From Lachnospirales bacterium (GTDB taxonomy: Bacteria; Bacillota; Clostridia; Lachnospirales; CAMZNU01), in assembly GCA_047973385.1 (NCBI GenBank), contig JBKEBX010000024.1:5-64004 (forward strand): a stretch of 64,000 nt of DNA, in the 5' to 3' direction. Shown here in pieces: positions 471 through 62,396 of this stretch. The notes beneath the pieces are model-generated. The model had not been told where the DNA came from. It searched no databases and was given only the letters and a program-made list of their open reading frames with translations. Both the position numbers and the translations under genes were made by a program. Within the stretch, counting starts at the first letter, position 1; the number at the start of each line of letters is the position of its first letter.

Positions 471-780
471 ATTACAATAATCTTAAGTTCTAGCCTTGTT
501 TTCGAGGCTAGGACTTTAGTATATTATATCATAAAGTAATTTCCAAAGGAAATTACAATATTCTTATGTCGTAGCTGTCTTTTGGTAGCTAGGACTTTAG
601 TATATTATATCATAAAGTAATTTCCAAGGAAATTACAATATTCTTATGTCGTAGCTGTCTTTTGGTAGCTAGGACTTTAGTATATTATATCATAAAGTAA
701 TTTCCAAAGGAAATTACAATAATCTTAATGTGTAGCTGTACTTTATGTAGCTACGCATTTAGTTTATTATACCATAAATA
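471..780. repeat. Tandem array A of the 81-bp double-hairpin repeat (about 4 units)
   Basis: Units start at 471, 552, 632 and 713 (period 80-81 bp). Each unit has the palindrome GTAATTTCC-AAA-GGAAATTAC, a second hairpin (490-511 CTAGCCTTG-TTTT-CGAGGCTAG; 572-591 TAGCTGTC-TTTT-GGTAGCTA), and a minus-strand TGATATAAT (e.g. rc of 523-531). The fourth unit is the variant type seen in array C. Confidence 0.9.
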
Positions 781-2170: not shown

Positions 2171-2262
2171 TATGTTATAATAAACTAAAGTCCTGGCTAC
2201 CAAAAGACAGCTATGACTTAAGCATATAATAATTTTCTTTGAAAATTACTATATGCTATAAC
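2171..2262. repeat. Array B: single unit of the 81-bp double-hairpin repeat (orientation as array D)
   Basis: TATGTTATAATAAACTAAAGTCCTGGCTACCAAAAGACAGCTATGACTTAAGCATATAATAATTTTCTTTGAAAATTACTATATGCTATAAC. The -10-like boxes TGTTATAAT and TGCTATAAC point toward the ORF starting at 2306. Confidence 0.75.
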
Positions 2263-6902: not shown

Positions 6903-7973
6903 ATGACACTAGAAACTCTTAAAAAAATTTACCGAAGTAAAAATATAAACAAAGTATATAAAGTTAACAAAATGGAGATAAAAGCAAACTGGCATGAGCT
7001 TTTATATGATTTAATTTTTATAATATTTATAGAAAAAATTATAACTATATATATAACTTCTTCTCATACTGCTGATATTAAGTTTGTTTTTGAAATATTG
7101 TTAATTTCTATGATGATTTTGTGGGTATGGAATGAACGTGTACTTCAAACAAACCATATGTATATACTTGAAAATGAGTTAAATGTTCATATACCCCAAT
7201 ACAAATTTTTGATATATATTGAAATGACTATTTTACTACTTTTACTACACAAGCTTGGTACATACCCCTATATTTACTTTTTTGTTAGTATATTTTTAAT
7301 ATCTGTGGTCTTTGAATTTATCTGTATGGAGTGGATAAGACACAAATTGTTTAGTCGTTATAAAAGAGAGTCTAAGGAAATGTATGATGCTGCTAAATCA
7401 TTTTGGGAAATTCGAACAAATAGTATAAACATTGAACATATACTAGAGCGTTTTGGAGTTTTAACTATTTTGTTTTTAGGCGAAACAATGCGAGAAGTTT
7501 TTTTATCTGATACTCATCAACTTGTTTTAATATTGTTTTGTATAATTCTTTTTAATATATTTGAATCCAGCACAAAACTATCTGATTCCTTAAAAGAACA
7601 ATCTATCAAAGAAAGCACCGTTAAGTATAATGTGTTAACAAGATATTTACGACGTTCACTTATATTACTTTTGTTTTTAATTTTGGCTGTTGCCTATACT
7701 CATAAATATCATGTGGAATACCCAGTAATTTTAATTACTGTTATTCTGTTAAATAAGTTCCACCAAGAATATGCATTATTCAAACTTGGAAAAATCTCAT
7801 TAAATAAGTATGAGATAATGTATTATATATACTTGTTTTTCATTACTCTATATGTGTTGCTAATTAAAAACTATAATATATTCACATTGATACTGATTTC
7901 CGTTTTGGCAATTCTTACTATTTTTAAAGATAGTTATCATACTATTGATATTGGCATTGATTTCAAAGAATAA
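6903..7973 (+). CDS. Polytopic membrane protein, LtrA (low-temperature-requirement A)-like
   Basis: 356 aa, multi-TM. The N-terminal WHELLYDLIFIIFI resembles the LtrA WLELFFDLVFV motif. The true start may be the internal Met in KVNKMEIK. Confidence 0.45.
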   Translation: MTLETLKKIYRSKNINKVYKVNKMEIKANWHELLYDLIFIIFIEKIITIYITSSHTADIKFVFEILLISMMILWVWNERVLQTNHMYILENELNVHIPQYKFLIYIEMTILLLLLHKLGTYPYIYFFVSIFLISVVFEFICMEWIRHKLFSRYKRESKEMYDAAKSFWEIRTNSINIEHILERFGVLTILFLGETMREVFLSDTHQLVLILFCIILFNIFESSTKLSDSLKEQSIKESTVKYNVLTRYLRRSLILLLFLILAVAYTHKYHVEYPVILITVILLNKFHQEYALFKLGKISLNKYEIMYYIYLFFITLYVLLIKNYNIFTLILISVLAILTIFKDSYHTIDIGIDFKE

Positions 7974-12012: not shown

Positions 12013-12750
12013 GGATACCCCTCCAATAAACCATATACTTATAGTATATCATAAATATCGTATTTTTCAACAGTTATGTTGAAAAAAAATAAATAATTTA
12101 TAGTTTTCAACAAAAAAAAACCATGCGAACATAAAAAACACCTATTTTCTTGAATTTCTATTGTTGATAATTTTATAACTTTATCTATTTTACCTGTGGA
12201 TATGTGTATAACTTTGTTAATAACTTAATATTTCAAATTAAGTCCTTACTTTAAGCTATTTGTTATATTTAAGAATTTATATAAATCCCCAAAATAATGT
12301 TAATAACTTTTTACGAAAATATTACAAATGTTTGTCATAAAATTAATATCTAAACTTATTTTCGGTAAAAATCTAATTGATATTGTAAAAATACTATATT
12401 TTTAACGATTTCTTATAATATTGCAACTATTTTTGAAAAAATTTCATTTTTTTTAGCTGAAATTTACCATTCATAAAAGCTTTTGAATGTCAATAACAAA
12501 AAAAAGAAAAGTTATTAACATACCTTTTCTTTTTTAACACAAATATGCCACATTTTCCTGTTAGTAACTATATTAAAATTACTAATATCTTTGTGGATAT
12601 GTTTATAACTTTGTGTATAACTTTCATATTTCATTTTTATATTATAAAAATCTTGTAAAATAGCCCTTAAAAAACTAATTTTTTATTGTTTAATTTCTTA
12701 ATTCATAAAAATTGTTTTAAAAATCTGTTGATAAGTTTTTAATAATTTTT
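12013..12750. promoter_or_regulatory. 738-bp non-coding region with a cluster of DnaA-box-like 9-mers (candidate DnaA-box cluster outside oriC)
   Basis: Matches to TGTGGATAA (rc of TTATCCACA): 12162 TGTTGATAA, 12195 TGTGGATAT, 12203 TGTGTATAA, 12215 TGTTAATAA, 12298 TGTTAATAA, 12488 TGTCAATAA, 12512 TTATTAACA, 12592 TGTGGATAT, 12600 TGTTTATAA, 12612 TGTGTATAA, 12726 TGTTGATAA. Two 32-bp direct repeats (12195-12226 and 12592-12623, 29/32 identical) each carry three abutting boxes. No ORF is present in the track. Confidence 0.5.
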
Positions 12751-17264: not shown

Positions 17265-17366
17265 TTGCAAAATATAGAAAAATCCATTTTCATAGCAAAA
17301 CAACGGTTACTTGTGAGAAAAAAAGTAGAAATGGCATATCGCCACTATTTTCTGGCATTTACAAAT
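17265..17366 (+). repeat. Dispersed intergenic repeat, copy E4 (partial)
   Basis: TTGCAAAATATAGAAAAATCCATTTTCATAGCAAAACAACGG ... GCCACTATTTTCTGGCATTTACAAAT. It lacks the ATGGCGACC start. Confidence 0.6.
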
Positions 17367-18481: not shown

Positions 18482-19255
18482 TCAACAACTTAAATTAACA
18501 TCTATGACAATGGTATACTTTTCTCCAACTTTATCAACTTTATAATTGGCAATTTCTCTACCTTCATTTAAAAACTCCATAGCCTCATCAAGTGTATCTG
18601 TAAGTAGTGAAATATCTCTAAAATTTCTATGTATACTAAAGTTTTCGTTAAAGTTTTCAACTAACTTATCAAACTCATAAAAACTCATGTTTTTAAATAA
18701 CGCAATTTCTAAAAGTTCAAGTTGTTTTTTCTCATCATCAACTTTTAGTATAACTTTTCCATATTGCTCTGTCAAGTTATTTGTTATTAAAAAATTTTTT
18801 ATTTTGTCTTTTAAAGTTAATAATCTAAGTTTTTCAAAAAGTATATTTTTACTTAAACCCACTTTTTCTGCAAGTTCTTGAACTGTTAAATTTTGCTGTT
18901 TCATAAGCTTAACATAACATTCAGCTTCATCAAAATAGTTTAAATCACATTTTTGAATATTTTCTATAAAAGACAACATAGCTGAATCTTCATCACTACT
19001 ATTTACGATTATTGTTGGAATATATGTAAGCCCTATAAGTTTACATGCTTTAAGGCGTCTTTCTCCAGCTACAAGTTCAAATTTACCATCACATACTCTA
19101 ACAGTTATAGGTTGCAAAATACCGTTTTCTTTTATTGATTTAGCAAGACTATATAAATTATCTTTATCAAATTGCTTTCTTGGTTGGTATTTGTTTGGTA
19201 ATATACTTTCAATTTTCAAACTAACAATTTCTTTTTCAAATTTTAAACTTCCCAT
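18482..19255 (-). CDS. ParB/Noc-family DNA-binding protein (Spo0J paralogue)
   Basis: 257 aa. ParB N-terminal box QPRK.F, the GERRLKA (GERRxRA) motif and an HTH region. It occupies the position next to rsmG where noc sits in Bacillus. It ends with TGA, the only TGA terminator I found in the window. Confidence 0.8.
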   Translation of the reverse strand: MGSLKFEKEIVSLKIESILPNKYQPRKQFDKDNLYSLAKSIKENGILQPITVRVCDGKFELVAGERRLKACKLIGLTYIPTIIVNSSDEDSAMLSFIENIQKCDLNYFDEAECYVKLMKQQNLTVQELAEKVGLSKNILFEKLRLLTLKDKIKNFLITNNLTEQYGKVILKVDDEKKQLELLEIALFKNMSFYEFDKLVENFNENFSIHRNFRDISLLTDTLDEAMEFLNEGREIANYKVDKVGEKYTIVIDVNLSC

Positions 19256-19379: not shown

Positions 19380-20099
19380 TTATAACGGCTTCTTCGTAAC
19401 AATACCTGCTTTTCTAGGGTACTTTGTCGAAATATTCGATATTTTTCTTAAACTTACAATAAAATGTTTAATTTCTGTTGTAGGTAAAACAACACTTACA
19501 ACCTTTTCAAACTCTAATTTTGTTTCACTAAAAGCATTTTTGGCATCAAATATCTCATCTTCATAAGCTCTACCTTTTAGAGCAATAAACTTACCATCAA
19601 CTCTTATAAATGGTGAACAAAACTCGCTTAAAACCCTGAAGTTCGCAACAGCACGAGCTACACAAATATCATAATTTTCTCTATACTGTTCATCTTTTGC
19701 TAAATCCTCAACTCTGCTATGAACCGTTTCTATATTTTTGAGTTCTAAAAGTTCTATAACTTCATCTAAAAATTTAACTCGTTTGTTTAAACTATCTACA
19801 AGAGTAAAATGCACATTTGGAAGTAAAATTTTAAGAGGAATACTTGGAAAACCTGCCCCTGTTCCTACATCAATAACTTTATCCCTATCTTTAAAATCAT
19901 AAGCCTTAAGTAGTGATATACTATCACAAAAATGCTTTATAATAACCTCTTTTTCTTCTGTTATAGCCGTTAAATTCATATGTTTATTTTTTTCAATAAG
20001 CAAATAAAAATATTTCTCAAATTTATTTAGACTTTCATCACTTACTTCAATATTCATTTGTAGGTCATTTATACAGTTTCTTAAAAATTCCTTATTCAT
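19380..20099 (-). CDS. rsmG: 16S rRNA (guanine527-N7)-methyltransferase RsmG (GidB)
   Basis: NLTAI...HF.DS...DVGTGAGFPSIPLKI motifs. The ORF track starts at 20120; the internal ATG at 20099 (MNKEFL...) fits the family length better. Start uncertain. Confidence 0.93.
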   Translation of the reverse strand: MNKEFLRNCINDLQMNIEVSDESLNKFEKYFYLLIEKNKHMNLTAITEEKEVIIKHFCDSISLLKAYDFKDRDKVIDVGTGAGFPSIPLKILLPNVHFTLVDSLNKRVKFLDEVIELLELKNIETVHSRVEDLAKDEQYRENYDICVARAVANFRVLSEFCSPFIRVDGKFIALKGRAYEDEIFDAKNAFSETKLEFEKVVSVVLPTTEIKHFIVSLRKISNISTKYPRKAGIVTKKPL

Positions 20100-20178
20100 A
20101 AAACCTCTATTTCTATACATTTATAGTTAAAAATTTACCATTACCTTTATTGTAGCATAAGATAATTATCCATGATTA

Positions 20179-20433
20179 TTATACCATAAAGTAATTTTCA
20201 TAGAAAATTACAATAATCTTAATGTGTAGCTGTATTTATGTAGCTATGCATTTAGTTTATTATACCTTAAAGTAATTTTCATAGAAAATTACAATAATCT
20301 TAATGTGTAGCTGTATTTATGTAGCTACGCATTTAGTTTATTATACCATAAAGTAATTTTCATAGAAAATTACAATAATCTTAATGTGTAGCTGTATTTA
20401 TGTAGCTACGCATTTAGTTTATTATACCATATA
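20179..20433. repeat. Tandem array C of the 81-bp double-hairpin repeat (3 units plus a partial one; orientation as array A)
   Basis: TTATACC unit starts at 20179, 20260, 20341 and 20422 (period exactly 81). Hairpin 1 variant GTAATTTTC-ATA-GAAAATTAC (e.g. 20191-20211). Hairpin 2 variant GTAGCTGTA-TTTA-TGTAGCTA(C/T). Minus-strand TGGTATAAT boxes (e.g. rc of 20178-20186). Confidence 0.9.
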
Positions 20434-20507
20434 AATAATATTTTTGTATAATAAAACTTGATACTTTTGCGTATATATTGTAAAATAGATATATTACATA
20501 AAGGAAG

Positions 20508-21971
20508 ATGATTATTATGATTAAAATAAATAAAAAGATTTTTGCTTTTTCAATATTTTTAACAACTCTAAATTTGTATCCTACACAAGTTAAAGCTAGT
20601 TCTGAAATTTTCATACCTAAATTCGAAGAAAATAACTTGAATTTTAATAATGAAAATAATTCTAGTTACAATGATAACAATAACACTTTTGTAAATACAA
20701 CAAATAAAGAAAATAATGAAATTGAACCTATAAACAATGATAATTCAACAATTCTTAACTCTAATGTTGAAAACAATTTAGAAAGCTCAATTGAAAATAC
20801 AGTTATAGAAAACCAAATTACTGAAGAAGTTACAGAAGTAAAATCAGAAGTTAACAATATAAATGATGAAGAAATAACTGAAGACTTATCAGAAATTAAC
20901 TCTGAAATTACTAAAACAACTGAAAACAGTGAAGAAATAGTAGAGGAAGTAACAAAAGAAACACCTAAAAAAATTGACATTGAAAATATGGAAAAAACAG
21001 TTGTTGTTCATGACGCAACAGGAATTGAAGTAAATTATATAAGTAAAAACAATTATCCCGATATAATACCTAATGAGATGAACGATATTATAATAGCTAT
21101 GTACCATGGAGTTTCTGCCGATATAAAAGATAATGATTCTGTACATAGAAGTATAAAAGGTTTTAAAGAAGATTTAGAACTTATGTATCAAAATGGTTAT
21201 AGACCTATTTCTATGGAAGACTTAATGAGCAATAACATATCTATTGAGGCTGGTTTAACCCCTATTGTTATAACTTTTGATGACGGTCTTAGTTCAACTT
21301 TTTCTCTTACTAAAGACGAAAACGGTAACTTTATACCTGTTACAGATACTGCTGTTGACATTTTAGAAAAATTTAACGAAAGCCACTCTGATTTTGGAAC
21401 TTTTGGCATGTTTTATCTGTACACTTCCCAACGACCTTTTAAAGGAGAAGGAACTGTTTTAGATGCTATAAACTATTTAACTGATAAAGGTTATGAGATT
21501 GGTAACCATACATATAGTCACCCTTTTTTAACAAAACTATCTGCCTCAGAAATCCAAAAAGAAATGGCTTTATCAACTAAATACATACACGAAAACTCAA
21601 ATGGTATAACTACAAAATATGTAGCTTATCCATATGGCGAAATACCAGATAACTGGCTTGATAAATACCTTTTAAATGGTGAATATGATGGATATTCATA
21701 TAACTTCCATTCAGGAGTTTTAGCTACTCCAAATATGTCAACTTCCACTTTAGTTTATTCAAATAAATTTGATAAATACAAAGTTGGTAGATATAGAGGT
21801 ACAAATAACTCTGTTTATGATTTAAATTGGAAGATACAAAAAGATTTAACTAATAATAGCCAATTTATATCCGATGGCGACCCTGATACTATAACTATTT
21901 TAGATGAGGATTTTCATAAGATAAACCTAAATACAGTCAAAGATAAAACATTAGTAGTAATTACTGATTAA
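20508..21971 (+). CDS. Secreted polysaccharide deacetylase (NodB homology domain) with Asn/Glu-rich low-complexity linker
   Basis: 487 aa. Signal peptide (...LYPTQVKASS), then ITFDDGLSS and GNHTYSHP NodB motifs. ATG at 20517 is better spaced from AAGGAAG than 20508. Confidence 0.85.
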   Translation: MIIMIKINKKIFAFSIFLTTLNLYPTQVKASSEIFIPKFEENNLNFNNENNSSYNDNNNTFVNTTNKENNEIEPINNDNSTILNSNVENNLESSIENTVIENQITEEVTEVKSEVNNINDEEITEDLSEINSEITKTTENSEEIVEEVTKETPKKIDIENMEKTVVVHDATGIEVNYISKNNYPDIIPNEMNDIIIAMYHGVSADIKDNDSVHRSIKGFKEDLELMYQNGYRPISMEDLMSNNISIEAGLTPIVITFDDGLSSTFSLTKDENGNFIPVTDTAVDILEKFNESHSDFGTFGMFYLYTSQRPFKGEGTVLDAINYLTDKGYEIGNHTYSHPFLTKLSASEIQKEMALSTKYIHENSNGITTKYVAYPYGEIPDNWLDKYLLNGEYDGYSYNFHSGVLATPNMSTSTLVYSNKFDKYKVGRYRGTNNSVYDLNWKIQKDLTNNSQFISDGDPDTITILDEDFHKINLNTVKDKTLVVITD

Positions 21972-21974
21972 AAA

Positions 21975-22010
21975 AACCCCTAAAGTTTTAATAAACTTTA
22001 GGGGTTTTTA
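21975..22010 (+). terminator. Rho-independent terminator
   Basis: AACCCCTAAAGTTT-TAA-TAAACTTTAGGGGTT followed by TTTTA. Confidence 0.85.
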
Positions 22011-22050
22011 TTAATTGTGGCATCACCCACAAAGTGTAATTATTCGACGA

Positions 22051-22105
22051 CTTCAAAAGCAATAACACAGAAAAAACAAATTTTGAAATGTTGCCATTTG
22101 TTTTT
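22051..22105 (-). repeat. Possible degenerate copy (E7) of the dispersed repeat
   Basis: AGAAAAAACAAATTTT is shared with E3, and ...GAAATGTTGCCATTTG resembles the GCAAGGTCGCCATTT end. The match is weak and partial. Confidence 0.3.
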
Positions 22106-24010
22106 TTACAACTTTCTTTCAAGGTGTATAAGTAACACGCTTATATCTGCTGGTGAAACTCCTGTTATACGACTTGCATGACCTATATTTTCAGGCTTTA
22201 ACTTATTTAACTTTTGCTTTGCCTCTATTCTTAAACCTTCAATTAAATCATAGTCCATATCTTTGGATAATTTCTTATTTTCAAGTCTTTTAAACTCTTT
22301 AACATGTTTAAGTTGTTTTTCTATATATCCATGATATTTAAGTTGTATATTTACTTGTTCTTTTACATCGAAAGATAATTCTTTTTTATCTTCTGATTTA
22401 TCAAGTTCAATTAATTTGTCATAGGATAACTCTGGACGTCTAATTAAATCAATAAGTTTTACACCTGTTGTAATAGGTGTACTATTGTTTTTCTCTAACA
22501 CCTCTATAACTTCCTTAGATGGTGGGATATTAACATTAGAAATTCTCTCAATTTCATTATCTATATCTCTTTGTTTTTGAACTACACTATTATACCTATC
22601 TTCTGATATAAGGGTATTTGGGGCAAGTTTATACATATGTCTTGTAAGTCTAAGGTCTGCGTTATCTTGTCTTAATAATAGTCTGTATTCTGCACGTGAT
22701 GTCATCATACGATAAGGCTCATTTGTACCCTTTGTAACTAAATCATCAATAAGTACGCCTATATATCCCATTGACCTATCTATAATAAGTGGTGGCTTGT
22801 TAAGGCATGATAGCCCTGCATTTATACCTGCAACAAGACCTTGACAACCTGCTTCTTCATATCCACTACTACCGTTAAACTGACCTGCACAATAGAGACC
22901 TGATATATTTTTAAGCTCAAGTGTAAGCTTTAAACTTGTAGCGTCTATACAGTCATATTCTATTGCATAAGCAGGACGTGTAAATTCGCAATTTTCAAGA
23001 CCTTCTATACTTCTGTACATAGCAACTTGCACATCCAAAGGAAGTGATGAACTCATACCTTGTATGTAATATTCCTGTGTACCAAGTCCTTCAGGTTCAA
23101 TAAAAACTTGATGCCTTTCCTTATCGGCAAATCTTTTTATCTTATCTTCGATAGAAGGACAATATCTTGCACCAGTACCTTCTATAACTCCTGTATACAT
23201 AGGGCTTCTCTCTATATTATCAGATATAATTTTATGAGTTTCTTTATTTGTATAAGTTAAATAACACTTGATTTGGTCAATTTGAATATCTTCTCTATTT
23301 GTTGTAAAAGAAAATGGGGTAATTATCTCATCACCAAGTTGTTCTTCCATCTTAGAAAAATCAATACTGTTTTTATGAACTCTTGCAGGGGTTCCCGTTT
23401 TAAAGCGTAATAAATCTAGTCCAAATTCATTTAAACTATTTGAAAGTTCTTTAGAATTACGAAGTCCATTAGGCCCACTATTTATAATAGTTTCACCATA
23501 CAAACATCTCGAGTTTAAATAAGTACCCGTTGAAATAATCGCTTTTTTACATTTTGTAACAGAGCCGTCTTCTAAAACAACTCCTACAACTTGATTATTA
23601 TCTGTTAAAATTTCTTTAACTTCCATTTGAACAACTTTTAGATTATCTTGATTTTCAAGTACTTTAAGCATTTCTTTTGTATATTTATACTTATCTACTT
23701 GCACTCTAAGGGAATGTACAGCAGGACCTTTTCCAGTGTTTAACATTCTACTTTGTATAAAAGTTTTATCAGTAAGTTTACCCATTTCCCCACCAAGTGC
23801 GTCAATTTCCTTAACTAAATGACCTTTAGAACTTCCTCCAACGTTAGGGTTACATGGCATCATAGCCACATTATCAATATTTAAAGTATATAGAACAGTT
23901 TTAAGACCAAGTCTAGCACTTGCAAGACTTGCCTCACAACCGGCATGACCTCCACCTATAACACAAATATCCACATTATCCATAACAAATCTATCTTTTA
24001 AAAACTCCAT
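22106..24010 (-). CDS. mnmG: tRNA uridine-5-carboxymethylaminomethyl modification enzyme MnmG (GidA)
   Basis: 634 aa. [14 protein letters not shown] motif with family-wide conservation throughout. Confidence 0.97.
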
Positions 24011-30570: not shown

Positions 30571-31691
30571 AAACCCTCCTTCGTTAGTTTAACAGTTAGT
30601 TACTCAAGTAATTAACTAAATAATATCATAAAAACTAATTGTTGTCAATATCTAAATTTAAGGGAATATCTAAAAACTTGATTTTAAAAAAATTTTAGAT
30701 ATTCCTTTGTAAAGTTTTCCACAGATTTTTTTACAATAATAACTTTTTTTCAAGTAAAATGTTAAAAATTATATAGTAAAATAAAGTTTATGTATTTTTT
30801 GTTAAATTTCTATTAAGATTTTTTGTTAAACTACACTTTTCAACAAAAAATAATCCTTTAAAATCATAGTTATTAACAAAGTTACTAACATTGTGTTAAT
30901 AACTTTGTATTTCTCATATTATAGCCATTTAGTAGAGTTTTAAAAAGATTTGTGTATAAATATTGATTTTTATAAAAAAACCTTTATTATAGCCATTTTT
31001 TCTTGTGATAACTTGTTTATAACTTTTTAATTTAAAAATAAGTTATTATTGTTGTTGATAACTATATTTTAAACATTTTTATTTATATTGATATACCTAA
31101 AATATTAAATATATATTTTTTCAACAAAAAGTTATAAACATCTTTGTTAATATTTTTAATGTTTAAAACTATTAGTTTTTTAGCTATAAAATCATAAAAA
31201 ATCTGATGTTTGTGCATAAAATTCACTTGTTAACATAGTCATTTGAAAGTTTTACACAGGACTTTACCTTATTATGAGTATATTATATATATAAATTGTT
31301 AATAAATATTTTCCACAGGAGTTTTTTTTTTAGATTTTTAAAAATAGCCTGTCTATTAATATATTAATATTTTTTATTTATTTTATATTATTTATATATT
31401 TATTATTAATAATTAATTATAAGATAAAAATATAAATTGGTGGAAGAAATATATAAAAAACTATTTACAATATGGCGAAAAACATTTAAAATATATATAG
31501 AGTTAATTGTAAGAAAATATAATTTCTTGTAATAATTAAATATAGTTAAGTAAATTAATATAAATTATCATAAATTTTTATTGTAATAAAATGTTAAAAA
31601 TTTAATAAAAGACAATATAATTTATGATGTTTTTTTTAATATATATTTTAATAATATTTTTCATTTATAAATTTAAAATAATATTTTAATA
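30571..31691. other. Chromosomal replication origin region (oriC): DnaA-box cluster plus AT-rich unwinding region
   Basis: Forward boxes: TTTTCCACA at 30715-30723 and 31309-31317, TTTTACACA at 31250-31258, TTATAAACA at 31132. Reverse boxes: TGTTAATAA at 30894 and 31297, TGTGTATAA at 30951, TGTTTATAA at 31014, TGTTGATAA at 31054, TGTGCATAA at 31211. The region lies between the minus-strand rpmH block and plus-strand dnaA, where gene orientation switches. Confidence 0.8.
31321..31691. other. Extreme-AT tract, candidate DNA unwinding element
   Basis: About 370 bp almost devoid of G/C (e.g. TATTAATATATTAATATTTTTTATTTATTTTATATTATTTATATATTTATTATTAATAATTAATTATAAG), immediately right of the last TTTTCCACA box and abutting dnaA. 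Confidence 0.55.
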
Positions 31692-32903
31692 TTGTATACT
31701 GAAAAAAACAAAGACAAAGATTTTATAATGCATAGAAAAAAAGATATTGTTTTAGATACAATTAAATCTATAAATCCTGTTATTCTTGATTTTAAGATAA
31801 ATACAGTTTTAGACGATAGTTTAAATGATAAAAATTCAATAAATAATACACAATTTATAGATATTGATAAAGCTAAAAGTATGGCAAACTTGCAACCTAG
31901 ATATACTTTTGAAAATTTTGTAAAAGGTGATTGTAATGATTATGCTTTTAATATTTCAAAAGTTGTAGCAAAAGAACCTGGTCAAATAGATACAAATCCT
32001 TTGTTTTTTTATGGTGGAGTTGGTCTTGGTAAAACCCATCTTATGCAATCTATTGGTAATAGAGTTTTAGAAAATAGTGTTACAAAAAAAGTTTTATATA
32101 CTTCTTTTGATACTTTTTTTAATGAATATACTGATTCACTTAGTTATAAAGATAGTGCTGTTTTTAGACAAAAATATAGTGAACTTAATATTTTACTTAT
32201 TGATGATATACAGTTTATTGCTAAAAAAGAAAAAGCTCAAGATGAACTTTTTCATATATTTGAGTTTTTAAGAAACAGTAATGTACAAATTGTGTTTACA
32301 TCAGATAGACCACCTAAGGAAATCGAAAATCTTACTGATAGACTTTCTTCAAGATTTTCTAACTGTATGATTGATATTACTAAACCTGACCTTGAAACTA
32401 GAATAGCTATTATTAAAAATAAGGCATCTATTAAAAATGTGCATTTTGAAAACGATATAGTTAATTATATCGCTCAAAATATTAATACTAATGTACGTGA
32501 ACTTGAAGCTGCTTTTAATAAAGTTGTCCAATTTGAAAAATTTTCAGGTAAAAAAGTTGATTTAGACATTGTAAAAGAGATTTTAACACCTTATATTCAA
32601 GGTGAAAATAGAAAAGCTATTACTGTTGAATTTATTATTGATGTTACTTCAAAATATTATAATGTTAGTGTTTCTGATATTTTAGGTAAAACAAGAAAGG
32701 CTGATATTGTTTATCCAAGACAAATGGCAATGTATTTATCTAGAAAACTTACTGATAAATCTTTACCACTTATTGGCGAAAAATTTAATCGTGATCATAC
32801 TACTGTTTTATCTTCAATAAATCGTATTGACGAGTATATTAGAAATAAAACTGGAACAACACAAGAAATAACTGACCTTGAAAATAATATTAGAGTAAAT
32901 TAA
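31692..32903 (+). CDS. dnaA: Chromosomal replication initiator protein DnaA (short, atypical N-terminus)
   Basis: PRYTFENFV, Walker A GGVGLGKTHL, Walker B LLIDDIQF, VRELEAAF, and domain IV (YPRQMAMYL...DHTTV). The start is uncertain: TTG 31692 (ORF track) or ATG 31728, neither with a clear SD. Confidence 0.95.
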   Translation: MYTEKNKDKDFIMHRKKDIVLDTIKSINPVILDFKINTVLDDSLNDKNSINNTQFIDIDKAKSMANLQPRYTFENFVKGDCNDYAFNISKVVAKEPGQIDTNPLFFYGGVGLGKTHLMQSIGNRVLENSVTKKVLYTSFDTFFNEYTDSLSYKDSAVFRQKYSELNILLIDDIQFIAKKEKAQDELFHIFEFLRNSNVQIVFTSDRPPKEIENLTDRLSSRFSNCMIDITKPDLETRIAIIKNKASIKNVHFENDIVNYIAQNINTNVRELEAAFNKVVQFEKFSGKKVDLDIVKEILTPYIQGENRKAITVEFIIDVTSKYYNVSVSDILGKTRKADIVYPRQMAMYLSRKLTDKSLPLIGEKFNRDHTTVLSSINRIDEYIRNKTGTTQEITDLENNIRVN

Positions 32904-34240: not shown

Positions 34241-35318
34241 AAAATTGTATCTTAATAATTTTAGAAATTTACAAAATCTTGATATAGAATTATCCCAAAA
34301 TGTTAATATTTTCATGGGTGATAATGGTCAAGGTAAAACAAATGTACTTGAAAGTATATATGTTTCTTCAATTGGTAAAAGTTTTAGAACTTTTTCTGAT
34401 AAGGAGCTAGTAAACTTTAATATGGATTTTACTTTTGGTAGCGTGGATATTTATGATGATAATTCCTATGACAAGATAGATTTTTATATTGATAAAATAG
34501 GTAAAAAAAGATTTTCTTTAAATAAATGTCATATAAAAAAAAACGGTGACCTTTTAGGTAATTTATATACTATTACTTTTACTCCAAAAGATTTAAACAT
34601 TATAAAACTTGGACCATCTGAACGAAGAAATTTTATTAATACTGAACTTTGTCAAATTTCTAATATTTATTTAAATAATTTAAAACAATATAATATTATA
34701 CTTAAACAAAGAAATAATTTACTTAAACAAATTCAAAAAAATAGTAAACTTGAAGACCAGCTTTTTATGTGGGATTCTCAACTTATTGAGTTTGGAAAAA
34801 AGATTTTTGAAAGTCGTAAAAAATTTATTGATAGTATAAACGTATATGCTGTTGATTTACATAATAAAATTACAGATAATAAGGAATCTTTAAATATAAT
34901 TTATAAATTTAATGTTAATTCTGATGAGTTTGAAGAAAAACTTGATAAGTCAAGAAAAAAAGATATTTTCACAGGTTCTACAAATGTCGGTATACACAAA
35001 GACGATATTGTTTTTTTAGTTGATGACAAAGATGTTAGAGTTTTTGGAAGCCAAGGACAACAAAGAACTGTTGCACTTGCTATAAAACTTGCAGAAATAT
35101 ATTTAATAAAAAAAATTAAAAATAAGAAACCTGTTCTTTTACTTGATGATATATTGTCTGAACTTGATAAAAAAAGACAAAATTTTTTACTTGAAGAAAT
35201 TGATGATTTGCAAGTTATTTTAACTTGTACGGGTGTTGAAGATTTTGTTAATTTTTTTAAAGATAAAGAGAACACTAAAATTTTTAAAGTTAATGAGGGT
35301 AATGTTATTGATATATAG
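34230..35318 (+). CDS. recF: DNA replication and repair protein RecF
   Basis: 362 aa. L.L.NFRN, Walker A GDNGQGKTNVLES, signature GSQGQQRT, Walker B LLLDDILSELD. Confidence 0.93.
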   Translation: MFVKKLYLNNFRNLQNLDIELSQNVNIFMGDNGQGKTNVLESIYVSSIGKSFRTFSDKELVNFNMDFTFGSVDIYDDNSYDKIDFYIDKIGKKRFSLNKCHIKKNGDLLGNLYTITFTPKDLNIIKLGPSERRNFINTELCQISNIYLNNLKQYNIILKQRNNLLKQIQKNSKLEDQLFMWDSQLIEFGKKIFESRKKFIDSINVYAVDLHNKITDNKESLNIIYKFNVNSDEFEEKLDKSRKKDIFTGSTNVGIHKDDIVFLVDDKDVRVFGSQGQQRTVALAIKLAEIYLIKKIKNKKPVLLLDDILSELDKKRQNFLLEEIDDLQVILTCTGVEDFVNFFKDKENTKIFKVNEGNVIDI

Positions 35319-35473
35319 TTACTGTATGTAATATGCTTATTTTCTTTAAAAACCTATTTAATTCTTCGTTTATATATTTTTTAATAGAAACTATTGATTA
35401 AAAAGTTTTATTGATATTTAGATAGTTTTTTTATTAAATTTATTAAATGTAAATATATGGTTATTTTAAAATT

Positions 35474-35516
35474 CTAAGACATTTAATAACGTTACTAAAT
35501 GTCTTGGATTTTTTTT
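35474..35516 (+). terminator. Rho-independent terminator after recF
   Basis: CTAAGACATTTA-ATAACGTTAC-TAAATGTCTTGG followed by ATTTTTTTT. Confidence 0.8.
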
Positions 35517-35558
35517 ATTGTATTATATGGTTATTTACTATTTTTTTATTTTAATTTA

Positions 35559-35812
35559 TATGGTATAATATACTAAAGTCCTAGCTACCAAAAGACAGCT
35601 ACGACTTAAGAATATTGTAATTTCCTTTGGAAATTACTTTATGGTATAATAAACTAAAGTCCTAGCTACCAAAAGACAGCTACGACTTAAGAATAGAGTA
35701 ATTTCCAAAGGAAATTACTCTATGGTATAATAAACTAAAGTCTTAGCTACCAAAAGATAGCTACGACTTAAGAATATTGTAATTTCCTTTGGAAATTACT
35801 CTATGGTATAAT
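35559..35812. repeat. Tandem array D of the 81-bp double-hairpin repeat (3 units plus a terminal -10 box), inverted relative to arrays A and C
   Basis: TATGGTATAAT at 35559, 35640, 35721 and 35802 (period exactly 81). Each unit is TGGTATAAT + TAGCTACC-AAAA-GACAGCTA + GTAATTTCC-(TTT/AAA)-GGAAATTAC. The last -10-like box lies 95 bp upstream of the soj GTG. Confidence 0.9.
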
Positions 35813-35906
35813 ATAATTAAATGTTTTTTATTTTTTATAAATGATTTTATCAACTTTAATATTTATAAAAAAAGTTTTAAAGTGAAAATGAAAGGAGTAT
35901 TTCCTT

Positions 35907-36689
35907 GTGAGTAAAGTTATTGTTGTTGCAAATCAAAAGGGTGGAGTTGGTAAAACTACAACTGCCGTAAATTTAGCATCTGAACTTGCTACTTTAGGTA
36001 AAAAAGTTTTAGCAGTGGATTGTGACCCTCAAGGTAATTTAACAAGTGGTTTTGGTATTGATAAATATAATTTAGAATACACTTTGTATGATGTTTTACT
36101 TGGAGGTTGTAATGTTTCTGATGCACTTATAAAGCATGATATTGAAAATTTATGGGTGTTTCCATCTAATGTAGATTTAGCAGGTGCTGAAATTGAACTT
36201 ATATCTATTGATAAAAGAGAATATTTGTTAAAAATCATAATTAACAATTTGAAAGATTTATATGACTATATTATTATTGATTGTCCACCTTCGTTAAACA
36301 TTTTAACTTTAAATGCTTTTTGTGTAGCTGATTCTGTACTTATACCAGTACAATGCGAATATTATGCTCTTGAGGGTTTATCTCAACTTATGAGTACGAT
36401 TAAATTAGTTCGTAAAAATCTAAATAAGGATTTACTAATTGAAGGAATATTGTTTACAATGTTTGATAGAAGAACTAATTTATCAATTGAAGTTATTGAT
36501 GAAGTTAAAAATTTCTTTAAAGGATATATTTTTAGTACATTTATTCCTAGAAATGTTAGACTTTCTGAAGCTCCAAGCCATGGTATTCCGATTAATCTTT
36601 ATGACGCAAAATCTAAAGGAGCAGAAGCCTACAAAGATTTAGCTATTGAGTTAGTTGAAAAAAATATTAATAGGGAAGATGAGGTGTAA
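35907..36689 (+). CDS. soj: Chromosome partitioning ATPase ParA/Soj
   Basis: 260 aa. Deviant Walker [12 protein letters not shown] and DCPPS. GTG start after AAAGGAG. Confidence 0.93.
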
Positions 36690-36691
36690 TT

Positions 36692-37576
36692 TTGGCTAGA
36701 AAAAAAGGATTAGGTAGAGGTGTAGGTGCTCTTATACCTGTTGATATTGTGGATGAATTTGATATAAATAGTAATGATAATGGCGAAAAAATTATTAATA
36801 TTGATATTAATTTAGTTGCACCTAACAAAAATCAGCCTCGTAAATTTTTCGATAAAGAACAACTTGAGGAACTTGCTAATTCTATAAAAGAAAAAGGTGT
36901 AATCCAGCCTATTTTAGTTGTTAAAAAAGGCGAAGGTTATATTATTGTTGCAGGTGAAAGACGTTATAGAGCTTCTAAAATCGCAGAACTTAAAAATATT
37001 CCTGCTATTGTTAAAGATTTTTCTGAAGTTGAAATTATGGAAATTGCTTTAATTGAAAACTTACAAAGACAGGATTTAAACGCTGTTGAGGAAGCATTAG
37101 GATATAAAAGATTAAATGATGAATTTTTACTTAGTTTTGATGATATTTCAAAAAGAGTAGGTAGAAGTAAAGGTTCGATTTCAAATTCTTTATCTTTACT
37201 TAAACTAGCTACTAAAGTTCAAGATTTAATTTACATTGGAAAATTAAATGCAAGTCAAGGCAGAATTTTACTTAAAGTAGAAGATGAAAAATTACAATGT
37301 GAGTTAGCAGAAGAAGCAATTGAACGAGATTTATCTGCTCATATGCTTGATGAATTTATTGATATATATTTTATTACTAAAGAAAAAGAATTAGAAAAAA
37401 ATTATAGGAAAAATTATAATGAGTATAGCTCAATAATAAATGAATTTGAAAATGATTTACAAAATTTTTTAGGCTTAAAAGTAAAAATTAATGATAAAAA
37501 TAAAAAAGGTAAGTTAGAAATAGCTTATACAAATCATGATGAATTAGAAAATTTAATAAAAATGCTTAAGAGATAA
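36692..37576 (+). CDS. spo0J: Chromosome partitioning protein ParB/Spo0J
   Basis: 294 aa. MARKKGLGRG...PN.NQPRK.F, GERRYRAS, an HTH and a C-terminal dimerisation region. TTG start 2 nt after the soj stop. Confidence 0.93.
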   Translation: MARKKGLGRGVGALIPVDIVDEFDINSNDNGEKIINIDINLVAPNKNQPRKFFDKEQLEELANSIKEKGVIQPILVVKKGEGYIIVAGERRYRASKIAELKNIPAIVKDFSEVEIMEIALIENLQRQDLNAVEEALGYKRLNDEFLLSFDDISKRVGRSKGSISNSLSLLKLATKVQDLIYIGKLNASQGRILLKVEDEKLQCELAEEAIERDLSAHMLDEFIDIYFITKEKELEKNYRKNYNEYSSIINEFENDLQNFLGLKVKINDKNKKGKLEIAYTNHDELENLIKMLKR

Positions 37577-48744: not shown

Positions 48745-48823
48745 ATGGAGACTTTGCAAAAGTATGAAAATTTGGTTTTTATTTGCAAGGTGCCATTATT
48801 TTAGTTTTATAGCGTTTCCATAT
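48745..48823 (+). repeat. Dispersed intergenic repeat, copy E5 (short form)
   Basis: ATGGAGACTTTGCAAAAGTATGAAAATTTGGTTTTTATTTGCAAGGTGCCATTATTTTAGTTTTATAGCGTTTCCATAT. The left-module start is fused directly to the right module. Confidence 0.75.
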
Positions 48824-62187: not shown

Positions 62188-62266
62188 TTTGGCGACTTTG
62201 CAAAAGTATGAAAATTTGGTTTTTCTTTTGCAATGTACCGTTGTTTCAATTTTCTGGCGTTTACAT
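62188..62266 (+). repeat. Dispersed intergenic repeat, copy E6 (short form)
   Basis: TTTGGCGACTTTGCAAAAGTATGAAAATTTGGTTTTTCTTTTGCAATGTACCGTTGTTTCAATTTTCTGGCGTTTACAT. Confidence 0.75.
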
Positions 62267-62396
62267 TTTTATAGTTTACGTTGTTTGAAACAGGATAATT
62301 GTAAAAAATTTATTATTTATCTAGTAAATTATTATAAATTATGATACAATGAAAAACGAGTGAGTTATAAAGATATAGATTTAATGAGGTGGTTTT

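Follow-up and report, generated by a model that had tools for sequence, protein, structure and literature searches.

The stretch of DNA studied here (hereafter, the window) comprises 64 kb of contig JBKEBX010000024.1 from a Lachnospirales bacterium, and we analyzed an 81-bp tandem repeat within it, one array of which lies directly 5' of the soj-spo0J operon. The window had a G+C content of 27%, and its GC skew changed sign at ~30.6-31.7 kb, adjoining dnaA; therefore, oriC was placed there. On the plus side, the gene order was dnaA, dnaN, recF, an array of the repeat (array 4), soj (ParA), spo0J (ParB) and pgi. The other side of the origin carried rsmG and a second ParB-family (noc-like) gene on the minus strand, with array 3 between rsmG and a divergent deacetylase gene. 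Array 1 was found between the divergent genes nfo and mgsA, and a lone unit lay 5' of the open reading frame (ORF) 2306. The identities of nfo, rsmG, recF, soj, spo0J and dnaA were confirmed, and all array loci were within 31 kb of oriC.

Copies of TATGGTATAAT stood at 35559, 35640, 35721 and 35802 with zero mismatches and a spacing of exactly 81 bp, and Tandem Repeats Finder returned a period of 81, 3.2 copies, 91% matches and 0 indels for 35559-35821; period-81 arrays were also returned for 471-778 and 20176-20439. An nhmmer profile built from the three units of array 4 was run on the window, and a covariance model returned the identical unit set and nothing beyond it. The window contained 10 full units, 1 truncated unit and 3 solitary terminal boxes at four loci, with 1, 3, 3 and 3.8 units per locus and mixed subtypes, which fits an interspersed tandem repeat of the BOX or MIRU kind. 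An earlier interpretation of the window (the sequence-only reading) had described the exact 81-bp recurrence in array 4, which the exact search and Tandem Repeats Finder bore out, and had placed ~12 units of the same family at four intergenic loci; the loci and their intergenic position were confirmed, but the count was not. At three of the four loci, the array had the form (box + 70-bp core)n followed by one final box; in array 1, the unit at 471-533 ended inside the second hairpin of the unit (hairpin B), and the terminal box was absent. The units of array 1 followed the order V2, V1, V1, V3, and this mixture of subtypes indicated that units had been exchanged between loci. Stop codons, read from the sequence, were present in all six frames of the unit, and the whole 81 bp repeated without unique spacers, which is not the organization of a CRISPR array. 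No further diverged or solo copies were found with the covariance model in the window or in the loci of the relatives described below (best outside match, E = 2).

Positions 1-11 of the unit (the box) read TRTGnTATAAT, which is the Gram-positive extended -10 form with its -16 region. This motif occurred 14 times in the window against an expectation of 1.6, and 12 of the 14 occurrences were inside the repeat. Of the 11 boxes that open a unit, 10 matched it exactly, as did two of the three terminal ones; one unit read TAAG, and the terminal box at 2252 was degenerate. The most variable box position among the units was the free 'n' (G, A or T), and the only other change affected position 3 in a single unit. 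Boxes outside the repeat stood at promoter positions, i.e., 6 nt before tRNA-Met (1610), ~40 nt before mnmE (25443) and 44 nt before ORF 9604 (9550). The distance from the gene-proximal box to the start codon was 94 nt for soj, 57 nt for rsmG, 43 nt for ORF 2306 and 89 nt for nfo (ATG), in agreement with the earlier claim that the boxes face these four gene starts. In array 4, TATGGTATAATATA was common to the first and terminal boxes, and the inner boxes read TATGGTATAATAAA (...ATAAA). The outer boxes were identical in array 4 and agreed over 13 of 13 nt in array 3 and 9 of 11 nt at 2171; this agreement would fit a target duplication of 11-14 bp and, equally, the boundary of a tandem unit. A second TATAAT (35812-35817) overlapped the terminal box of array 4, with the -35-like hexamer TTGGAA 17 bp 5' of the second TATAAT. 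The terminal box of array 4 is probably the native extended -10 promoter of soj.

We compared the soj region with contigs of three relatives (L105, L107 and L110), taking 10 kb on either side of soj; the nearest Soj proteins were 68-80% identical. The unit was absent from the three soj regions as judged using nhmmer and the covariance model, and the palindrome of hairpin B was absent as well. A single TRTGnTATAAT box was present 5' of soj in each relative (TATGATATAAT in L105 and TGTGTTATAAT in L107 and L110). When array 4 was deleted in silico to one box, the 5' flank of the first box (ACTATTTTTTTA, ~10 nt before the box) aligned with the 5' flank in L105, and the sequence past the last box continued to soj. 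The single box in the relatives, the alignment of the flank and the lack of an array there indicated that array 4 is a recent lineage-specific amplification or insertion on the native soj promoter. The nfo-mgsA spacer of L105 contained TATGTTATAAT on the nfo strand, and at least one further locus, nfo, follows the same pattern as soj. When the exact Soj and RecF proteins were looked up, the only records were short contigs from that same sample which break at the arrays, and MgsA had no record; neither a second strain nor an empty site was found in this way. In an independent short-read assembly of that sample, contigs ended ~30 bp into the first unit and started inside the last unit. Such breaks exactly at the array edges are expected of a real multi-copy repeat; the units also differ by point substitutions and form three subtypes at four loci. 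Therefore, although the window is a contig of a metagenome-assembled genome, we regard it as extremely unlikely that the arrays are an assembly artefact.

Overall, we think it rather likely that the arrays are a lineage-specific, non-coding, interspersed repeat family that has been tandemly amplified on native sigma-A extended -10 promoters. The sequence-only reading had included a promoter cassette and a REP- or MITE-like (miniature inverted-repeat transposable element) selfish repeat among its candidates; both are supported by the perfect TRTGnTATAAT, the single box in relatives (soj and nfo) and the absence of arrays there. The coordinates are listed in Table 1.

Table 1. Repeat units, terminal boxes, hairpins and adjoining features in the window.
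Feature	Position	Strand	Basis or remark
Array 1, mixed	471-776	-	Units 695-776 (V2 hairpin A), 615-694 and 534-614 (V1), 471-533 (V3, truncated)
Lone diverged unit	2171-2251	+	nhmmer, covariance model
Degenerate terminal box TATGCTATAAC	2252-2262	+	43 nt 5' of ORF 2306
Solitary terminal box TATGGTATAAT	20178-20188	-	57 nt 5' of rsmG start
Array 3, three V2-type units	20189-20431	-	nhmmer, covariance model
Array 4, three 81-bp units (box + 70-bp core)	35559-35639, 35640-35720, 35721-35801	+	Repeat finder, nhmmer, covariance model
Solitary terminal box TATGGTATAAT	35802-35812	+	94 nt 5' of soj GTG
Hairpin A	35573-35610, 35654-35691, 35735-35772		Folding, unit alignment; RNA fold better on minus strand via G-U pairs
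Hairpin B, perfect 9-3-9 palindrome GTAATTTCC-NNN-GGAAATTAC	35617-35637, 35698-35718, 35779-35799
recF intrinsic terminator AAGACATTTA...TAAATGTCTT + T run	35476-35517	+	Read from sequence
soj (parA) + spo0J (parB) operon, 3' of array 4	35907-36689, 36692-37576	+

Each unit contained two hairpins, i.e., hairpin A at unit positions 15-52 (~16 pairs) and hairpin B at positions 59-79. The helix of hairpin A ran CT.AAGTC...GACTT.AG and was fuller on the strand opposite the box. The palindrome GTAATTTCC-NNN-GGAAATTAC had been recognized correctly in the sequence-only reading; hairpin A had not, since only TAGCT/AGCTA pair on the strand on which it was written. In the V2 units of array 3, hairpin A was formed by AATGTGTAGCTGTA/TGTAGCTACGCATT and hairpin B by GTAATTTTC-ATA-GAAAATTAC. 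Hairpin A co-existed in three sequence types and hairpin B in two, and 7 of the 25 pairs in the unit alignment had changed on both sides. None of 500 column shuffles matched the observed covariation score, and 0-1 matched the count of two-sided pairs; pairing was lost when the partners were slid by 1-3 columns. Folding z-scores ranged from -2.5 to -7.1, the diverged unit at 2171 being the weakest. The covariation, the shuffles and the z-scores together indicated that both hairpins have been maintained as hairpins. The loop of hairpin B switched between TTT and AAA in adjacent units, which is a signature of palindrome inversion at the DNA level. In some units, hairpin B with the following TTTATGG was flagged as terminator-like on the box strand (plus in array 4).

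The succession of box, hairpin A, an 11-nt single-stranded linker (UUAAGAAUAUU) and hairpin B with U's has the layout of a mini-gene, and the linker TTAAGAWTATTG is conserved. Together with the terminator-like flag, this would suit tandem small-RNA genes in which each unit gives an RNA of ~65 nt on the box strand, as for Listeria LhrC1-5. We consider such genes improbable: several units (CTCTATGG) had a poor U-tract or none, the box strand forms the weaker version of hairpin A, and no target could be proposed. In addition, no homologue was found in the relatives examined or in Rfam, which is unusual for a trans-acting RNA.

Several observations weigh against a repeat family amplified on promoters. 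The orientation was informative at only two of the four loci, as the other two arrays sit between divergent genes, and the firing of promoters from the boxes is inferred. The box and the next 8 nt were the best-conserved part of the unit, but marginally (16 of 19 versus 36 of 63 invariant columns, p = 0.055), and we did not lean on a region that is barely better conserved than the remaining unit. The scope was 64 kb of one metagenome-assembled genome. No terminal inverted repeats spanned the unit, as its two hairpins are local, and no transposase was found among the 30 ORFs scanned (855-46621; ORFs at ~46.7-63 kb were outside the scan). Furthermore, hairpin A favored the strand opposite the box. 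On that strand, 96.3% of cells formed pairs compared with 86.7% on the box strand, and as RNA the opposite strand was 5-8 kcal/mol more stable per unit in all four unit types. Two adjacent G-U pairs on the opposite strand were conserved in nearly all units, and the pair above them that closes the loop of hairpin A covaried (C-G, A-U, G-C); this covariation is sensible only if the G-U pairs below it form, i.e., on the opposite strand. With its TAGTTTATTA tail, the V2 hairpin A (14 pairs) was also flagged as a terminator on this strand, at three sites in array 3 and one in array 1.

These findings raise the alternative that the strand opposite the box acts as an RNA element, namely a terminator or insulator against backward transcription, in which the box would largely be the complement of a U-tract. 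The difference between the strands was only ~2 kcal/mol as single-stranded DNA, which points to RNA, and G-U pairs occurred almost only on the opposite strand (5-6 independent wobble events versus 1 on the box strand, a count that alone is not significant). Mutational bias was considered as the cause of the asymmetry and rejected, as leading-strand C-to-T changes would put the wobbles on the box strand, the reverse of what was observed. However, no obvious promoter or gene feeds the opposite strand at the four loci, and any transcript from it would run antisense to nfo, rsmG or soj. Each of the four loci is a 5' region, whereas repeats of the terminator type (SPRITE, REP) lie chiefly at 3' ends (PMC3049150, PMC3733652), and an element on the opposite strand leaves the perfect TRTGnTATAAT and the single boxes of the relatives unexplained. 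We therefore consider it unlikely and continue to favor the promoter-borne repeat family; a unit may combine a promoter facing one way with a terminator facing the other.

The position of array 4 directly 5' of soj-spo0J, with another array beside rsmG and the noc-like gene and both within 31 kb of oriC, recalls a centromere or nucleoid-occlusion array in which the palindromes load Spo0J/ParB or the Noc-like paralogue. Like sopC of F, parC of R1 and the chromosomal parS and Noc-binding site (NBS), the arrays are tandem inverted-repeat units beside parAB, near oriC, with NBS-like half-sites. No canonical parS was found in the window at <=1 mismatch, as the sequence-only reading had said for the window and for spo0J itself; the only parS-like site inside spo0J (36946) had 2 mismatches, and the units were unlike the 16-bp parS palindrome TGTTNCACGTGAAACA. 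Neither canonical parS nor NBS was present in the 64-kb origin window or in the 20 kb around soj in the three relatives, and searches for degenerate parS-like patterns and shared GC-containing palindromes in the same regions returned none. The absence of canonical parS is uninformative about the arrays, because the array-less relatives also lack it. Four specificity positions have been defined in ParB and Noc, at which parS binders have R..G and NBS binders QKKR, with R173 and G201 reported as invariant in ParB orthologues (PMC7383237). Using Caulobacter residue numbering anchored by PDB alignments, we found K173, S179, K184 and S201 in the Spo0J-like protein (36692-37576) and K/K/T/Q in the Noc-like protein (18482-19255); both scored below the TIGR04285 cut-off, and both lacked QKKR as well as the R..G of parS binders. 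Such unusual, non-canonical paralogues imply that some other cognate site must exist, and the clade may use a non-canonical centromere sequence.

The comparison with relatives settled whether this site is the array. Their ParB proteins (L105 10780-11655, L107 10784-11659 and L110 10778-11668) carried K173, S or T179, K184 and S201, and these array-less relatives lacked the palindrome within 10 kb on either side of soj; the altered ParB therefore predates the arrays and is independent of them. The half-sites ATTTCC/GGAAAT are shared with the NBS ATTTCCCGGGAAAT, but the center was 3 bp in 9 of the 10 palindromes rather than the 2-bp CG, and the lone palindrome with a 2-bp center, in a unit with a deletion, had AA; apart from that unit, none came within 2 mismatches of the NBS. 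The palindrome was never found outside units in a search of the window. Its two variants are distinguished by a C-to-T change in one arm and a G-to-A change in the opposite arm; such a two-arm compensatory change fits a selected hairpin better and would be unexpected for a site read by one dimeric protein. In addition, arrays are also present at unrelated genes (nfo/mgsA and ORF 2306), and the most conserved region is that of the box, not the palindrome. A function as a ParB or Noc loading site is thus not supported, and the centromere-like role proposed in the sequence-only reading was dropped as highly improbable. Iterated palindromes beside parAB are accordingly not necessarily centromeres, a caution for annotation, and ParB with K173/S201 and no nearby canonical parS is a separate lead on ParB specificity in this clade.

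Palindrome B might instead serve as an operator, with the arrays titrating or answering a dimeric regulator. It is a perfect 9-3-9 palindrome over the -35/spacer region of the following box, centered ~30 bp 5' of the start expected from that box, and its AATTTTC/GAAAATT half-sites are those of the CodY box AATTTTCWGAAAATT. We find this very doubtful: the CodY box has a 7-1-7 arrangement and the units 7-3-7, no unit matched it at <=2 mismatches, and CodY boxes were not enriched in the window. The two-arm compensatory change and the flipping loop argue in the same direction, and the first box of each array has no palindrome 5' of it.

We then looked for the family elsewhere, using exact patterns for the scans of one genome per species in GTDB, metagenome and viral collections and including plasmids, phages and Rfam. 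The palindrome scan of the GTDB contigs yielded 103 stretches, none of them related to the unit according to nhmmer. Of two metagenome scans, one gave 0 matches, and the other gave at least 120 chance matches with no family member among the matches listed; two viral-contig scans gave 0, and blastn against plasmids and phages found no match. In Rfam, only tRNAs reached the gathering score, and sub-threshold matches were generic hairpins. Among the collections searched, the family was seen only in this genome and may be an orphan. The 30 ORFs scanned in the window were housekeeping genes or had no family match, and no RAYT was found among them (855-46621). In a further alternative, the 70-bp core is a non-autonomous mobile element that homes to TRTGnTATAAT in one orientation and duplicates the box as a target duplication of 11-14 bp. 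If so, each insertion would add a tandem promoter as well as a fresh target. We know of no bacterial MITE with such promoter-homing behavior and consider it unlikely; the transposition substrate could equally be the opposite-strand RNA or single-stranded DNA hairpin of the element.

Small hairpin repeats at promoters are an already known phenomenon. The BOX elements of Streptococcus pneumoniae have the structure boxA-boxB(n)-boxC and are reported to raise or lower downstream expression depending on module and orientation (PMC3049150). Like BOX, the arrays are a small non-coding interspersed Firmicute repeat with a tandem internal module in variable number, located mostly 5' of genes and predicted to form stem-loops (PMC3049150). 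They have no sequence similarity to BOX and, unlike it, lack distinct terminal modules as well as terminal inverted repeats of the insertion-sequence kind; each unit contains a complete consensus extended -10 box, and this box bounds the array. The MIRUs are mycobacterial minisatellites with units of 46-101 bp, which sit inside operons and carry small overlapping reading frames; the units described here differ from them in having six-frame stops, promoter sites and two hairpins. The two families share short tandem arrays at many intergenic loci and co-orientation with flanking genes, and MIRU copy numbers shift by recombination or slippage (PMC3635867), as those of the units may. The Correia repeats of Neisseria resemble the units as small non-autonomous repeats that give promoters beside genes and RNA hairpins that affect transcripts (PMC2649163). 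However, Correia elements belong to the true MITEs: they have terminal inverted repeats, duplicate a TA target, occur singly and make their promoter at the junction, whereas the units are direct tandem copies without terminal inverted repeats in which the -10 box is the repeat boundary. REP and BIME elements are likewise extragenic repeats that form hairpins; they often come in clusters or tandem series, and complementary changes in the stem set their subfamilies apart (PMC3733652). They are 20-40 bp long, carry an unpaired GTAG at one end, lie mostly 3' of genes and are mobilized by RAYT, and the survey does not mention Firmicutes (PMC3733652). On the strand opposite the box, hairpin A does contain a GTAG, but it lies inside the stem; with this pairing, an 81-bp unit with two unlike hairpins and loci 5' of genes, membership in the GTAG-REP family was rejected. 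What is new here is the combination of a consensus extended -10 box as the repeat boundary, promoter-oriented arrays on native promoters and two unlike, compensated hairpins.

Based on the favored promoter-borne repeat family, a mechanism can be proposed, although its functional steps are all inferred and the basis is 64 kb of a single uncultured genome. The 5' flank of the first box and the 3' flank of the last box would be the original promoter surroundings. Each box would recruit RNA polymerase as a strong -35-independent promoter, with the start ~7 nt past the box, at the A whose pairing opens the main stem of hairpin A. Hairpin A would thereby become a 5'-terminal stem-loop on the transcript, of a kind that stabilizes Gram-positive RNAs; in Bacillus, a 5'-terminal stem-loop shields RNA from 5'-end-dependent decay. 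Hairpin B and the U-rich sequence after it (UUUAUGG) may act as a leaky terminator with partial termination, and the last box would drive soj, rsmG, ORF 2306 or nfo with a transcript that lacks the hairpins. The net effect would be multiplied promoters, and perhaps insulation, for soj-spo0J, rsmG-noc, ORF 2306 and nfo. Unit number may change by unequal recombination between units, and new loci may arise at other promoter boxes, through insertion that targets and duplicates the box or through recombination or template switching via box homology. If each box fires, promoter copy number would vary naturally, 81 bp at a time, in front of housekeeping genes and the chromosome-partition operon among them, giving a simple, evolvable way of tuning expression and a compact cassette (promoter, 5' stem-loop and weak terminator) usable in low-GC Firmicutes. 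Homing of the element to -10 boxes, if real, would represent a new target choice for a small mobile element.

Regarding the surroundings of the arrays, array 4 was also considered as the recF terminator, which was excluded because the terminator of recF is 5' of the array (Table 1). Near array 3, a polysaccharide-deacetylase gene (20508-21971, plus strand) lies between mnmG and rsmG in the opposite orientation (region 19380-24010). It splits the usual mnmE-mnmG-rsmG-noc run, and rsmG-noc consequently needs its own promoter; array 3 sits there. At the lone unit, the 40 bp leading into the box at 2171 (2145-2184, TATCTAGTAAATTA...TTATGTTATAAT) were 78% identical to 62314-62353 in the promoter region of ORF 62397 (TTATGATACAAT). 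That region carries no unit, and the likeness ends at the box; this fits a first box at 2171 that would be an ordinary promoter.

In L105 (8141-10765), nfo and the divergent mgsA are followed directly by soj, whereas mgsA and soj are 35 kb apart in the window, with arrays at nfo|mgsA (1-1325) and recF|soj (35318-35907) and a second repeat family directly after mgsA. The repeats may mark rearrangement breakpoints. The second interspersed repeat is unrelated to the first and occurred at 1312-1513, 1815-1969, 17265-17304, 48756-48821 and 62201-62266, with motifs such as GGCGACCTTGCAAAATATAGAAAAATCC... and CAAAAGTATGAAAATTTGGTTTTT...GGCGTTTCCAT; tRNA-Met has a copy on either side, and another copy comes after tRNA-Glu/Cys. 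L105 also carried an unrelated 135-bp tandem repeat (7008-7425; 3.1 copies, 84-93% matches) between convergent genes, and minisatellite-like intergenic arrays may be common in this clade.

Two observations concerned the origin. Six DnaA-box-like 9-mers, each with 1 mismatch, were located at 12162-12734 in the 740-bp spacer between the signal-peptidase and rhomboid genes, ~18 kb from the skew switch at oriC; the count of such 9-mers across the whole window was only marginally above chance. The dnaA gene (31554-32903) starts at a TTG in the ORF list, giving 403 aa, and the matching call in a short-read contig was 449 aa (L111 325-1674); the true start is probably ~138 nt further 5' than the listed TTG.

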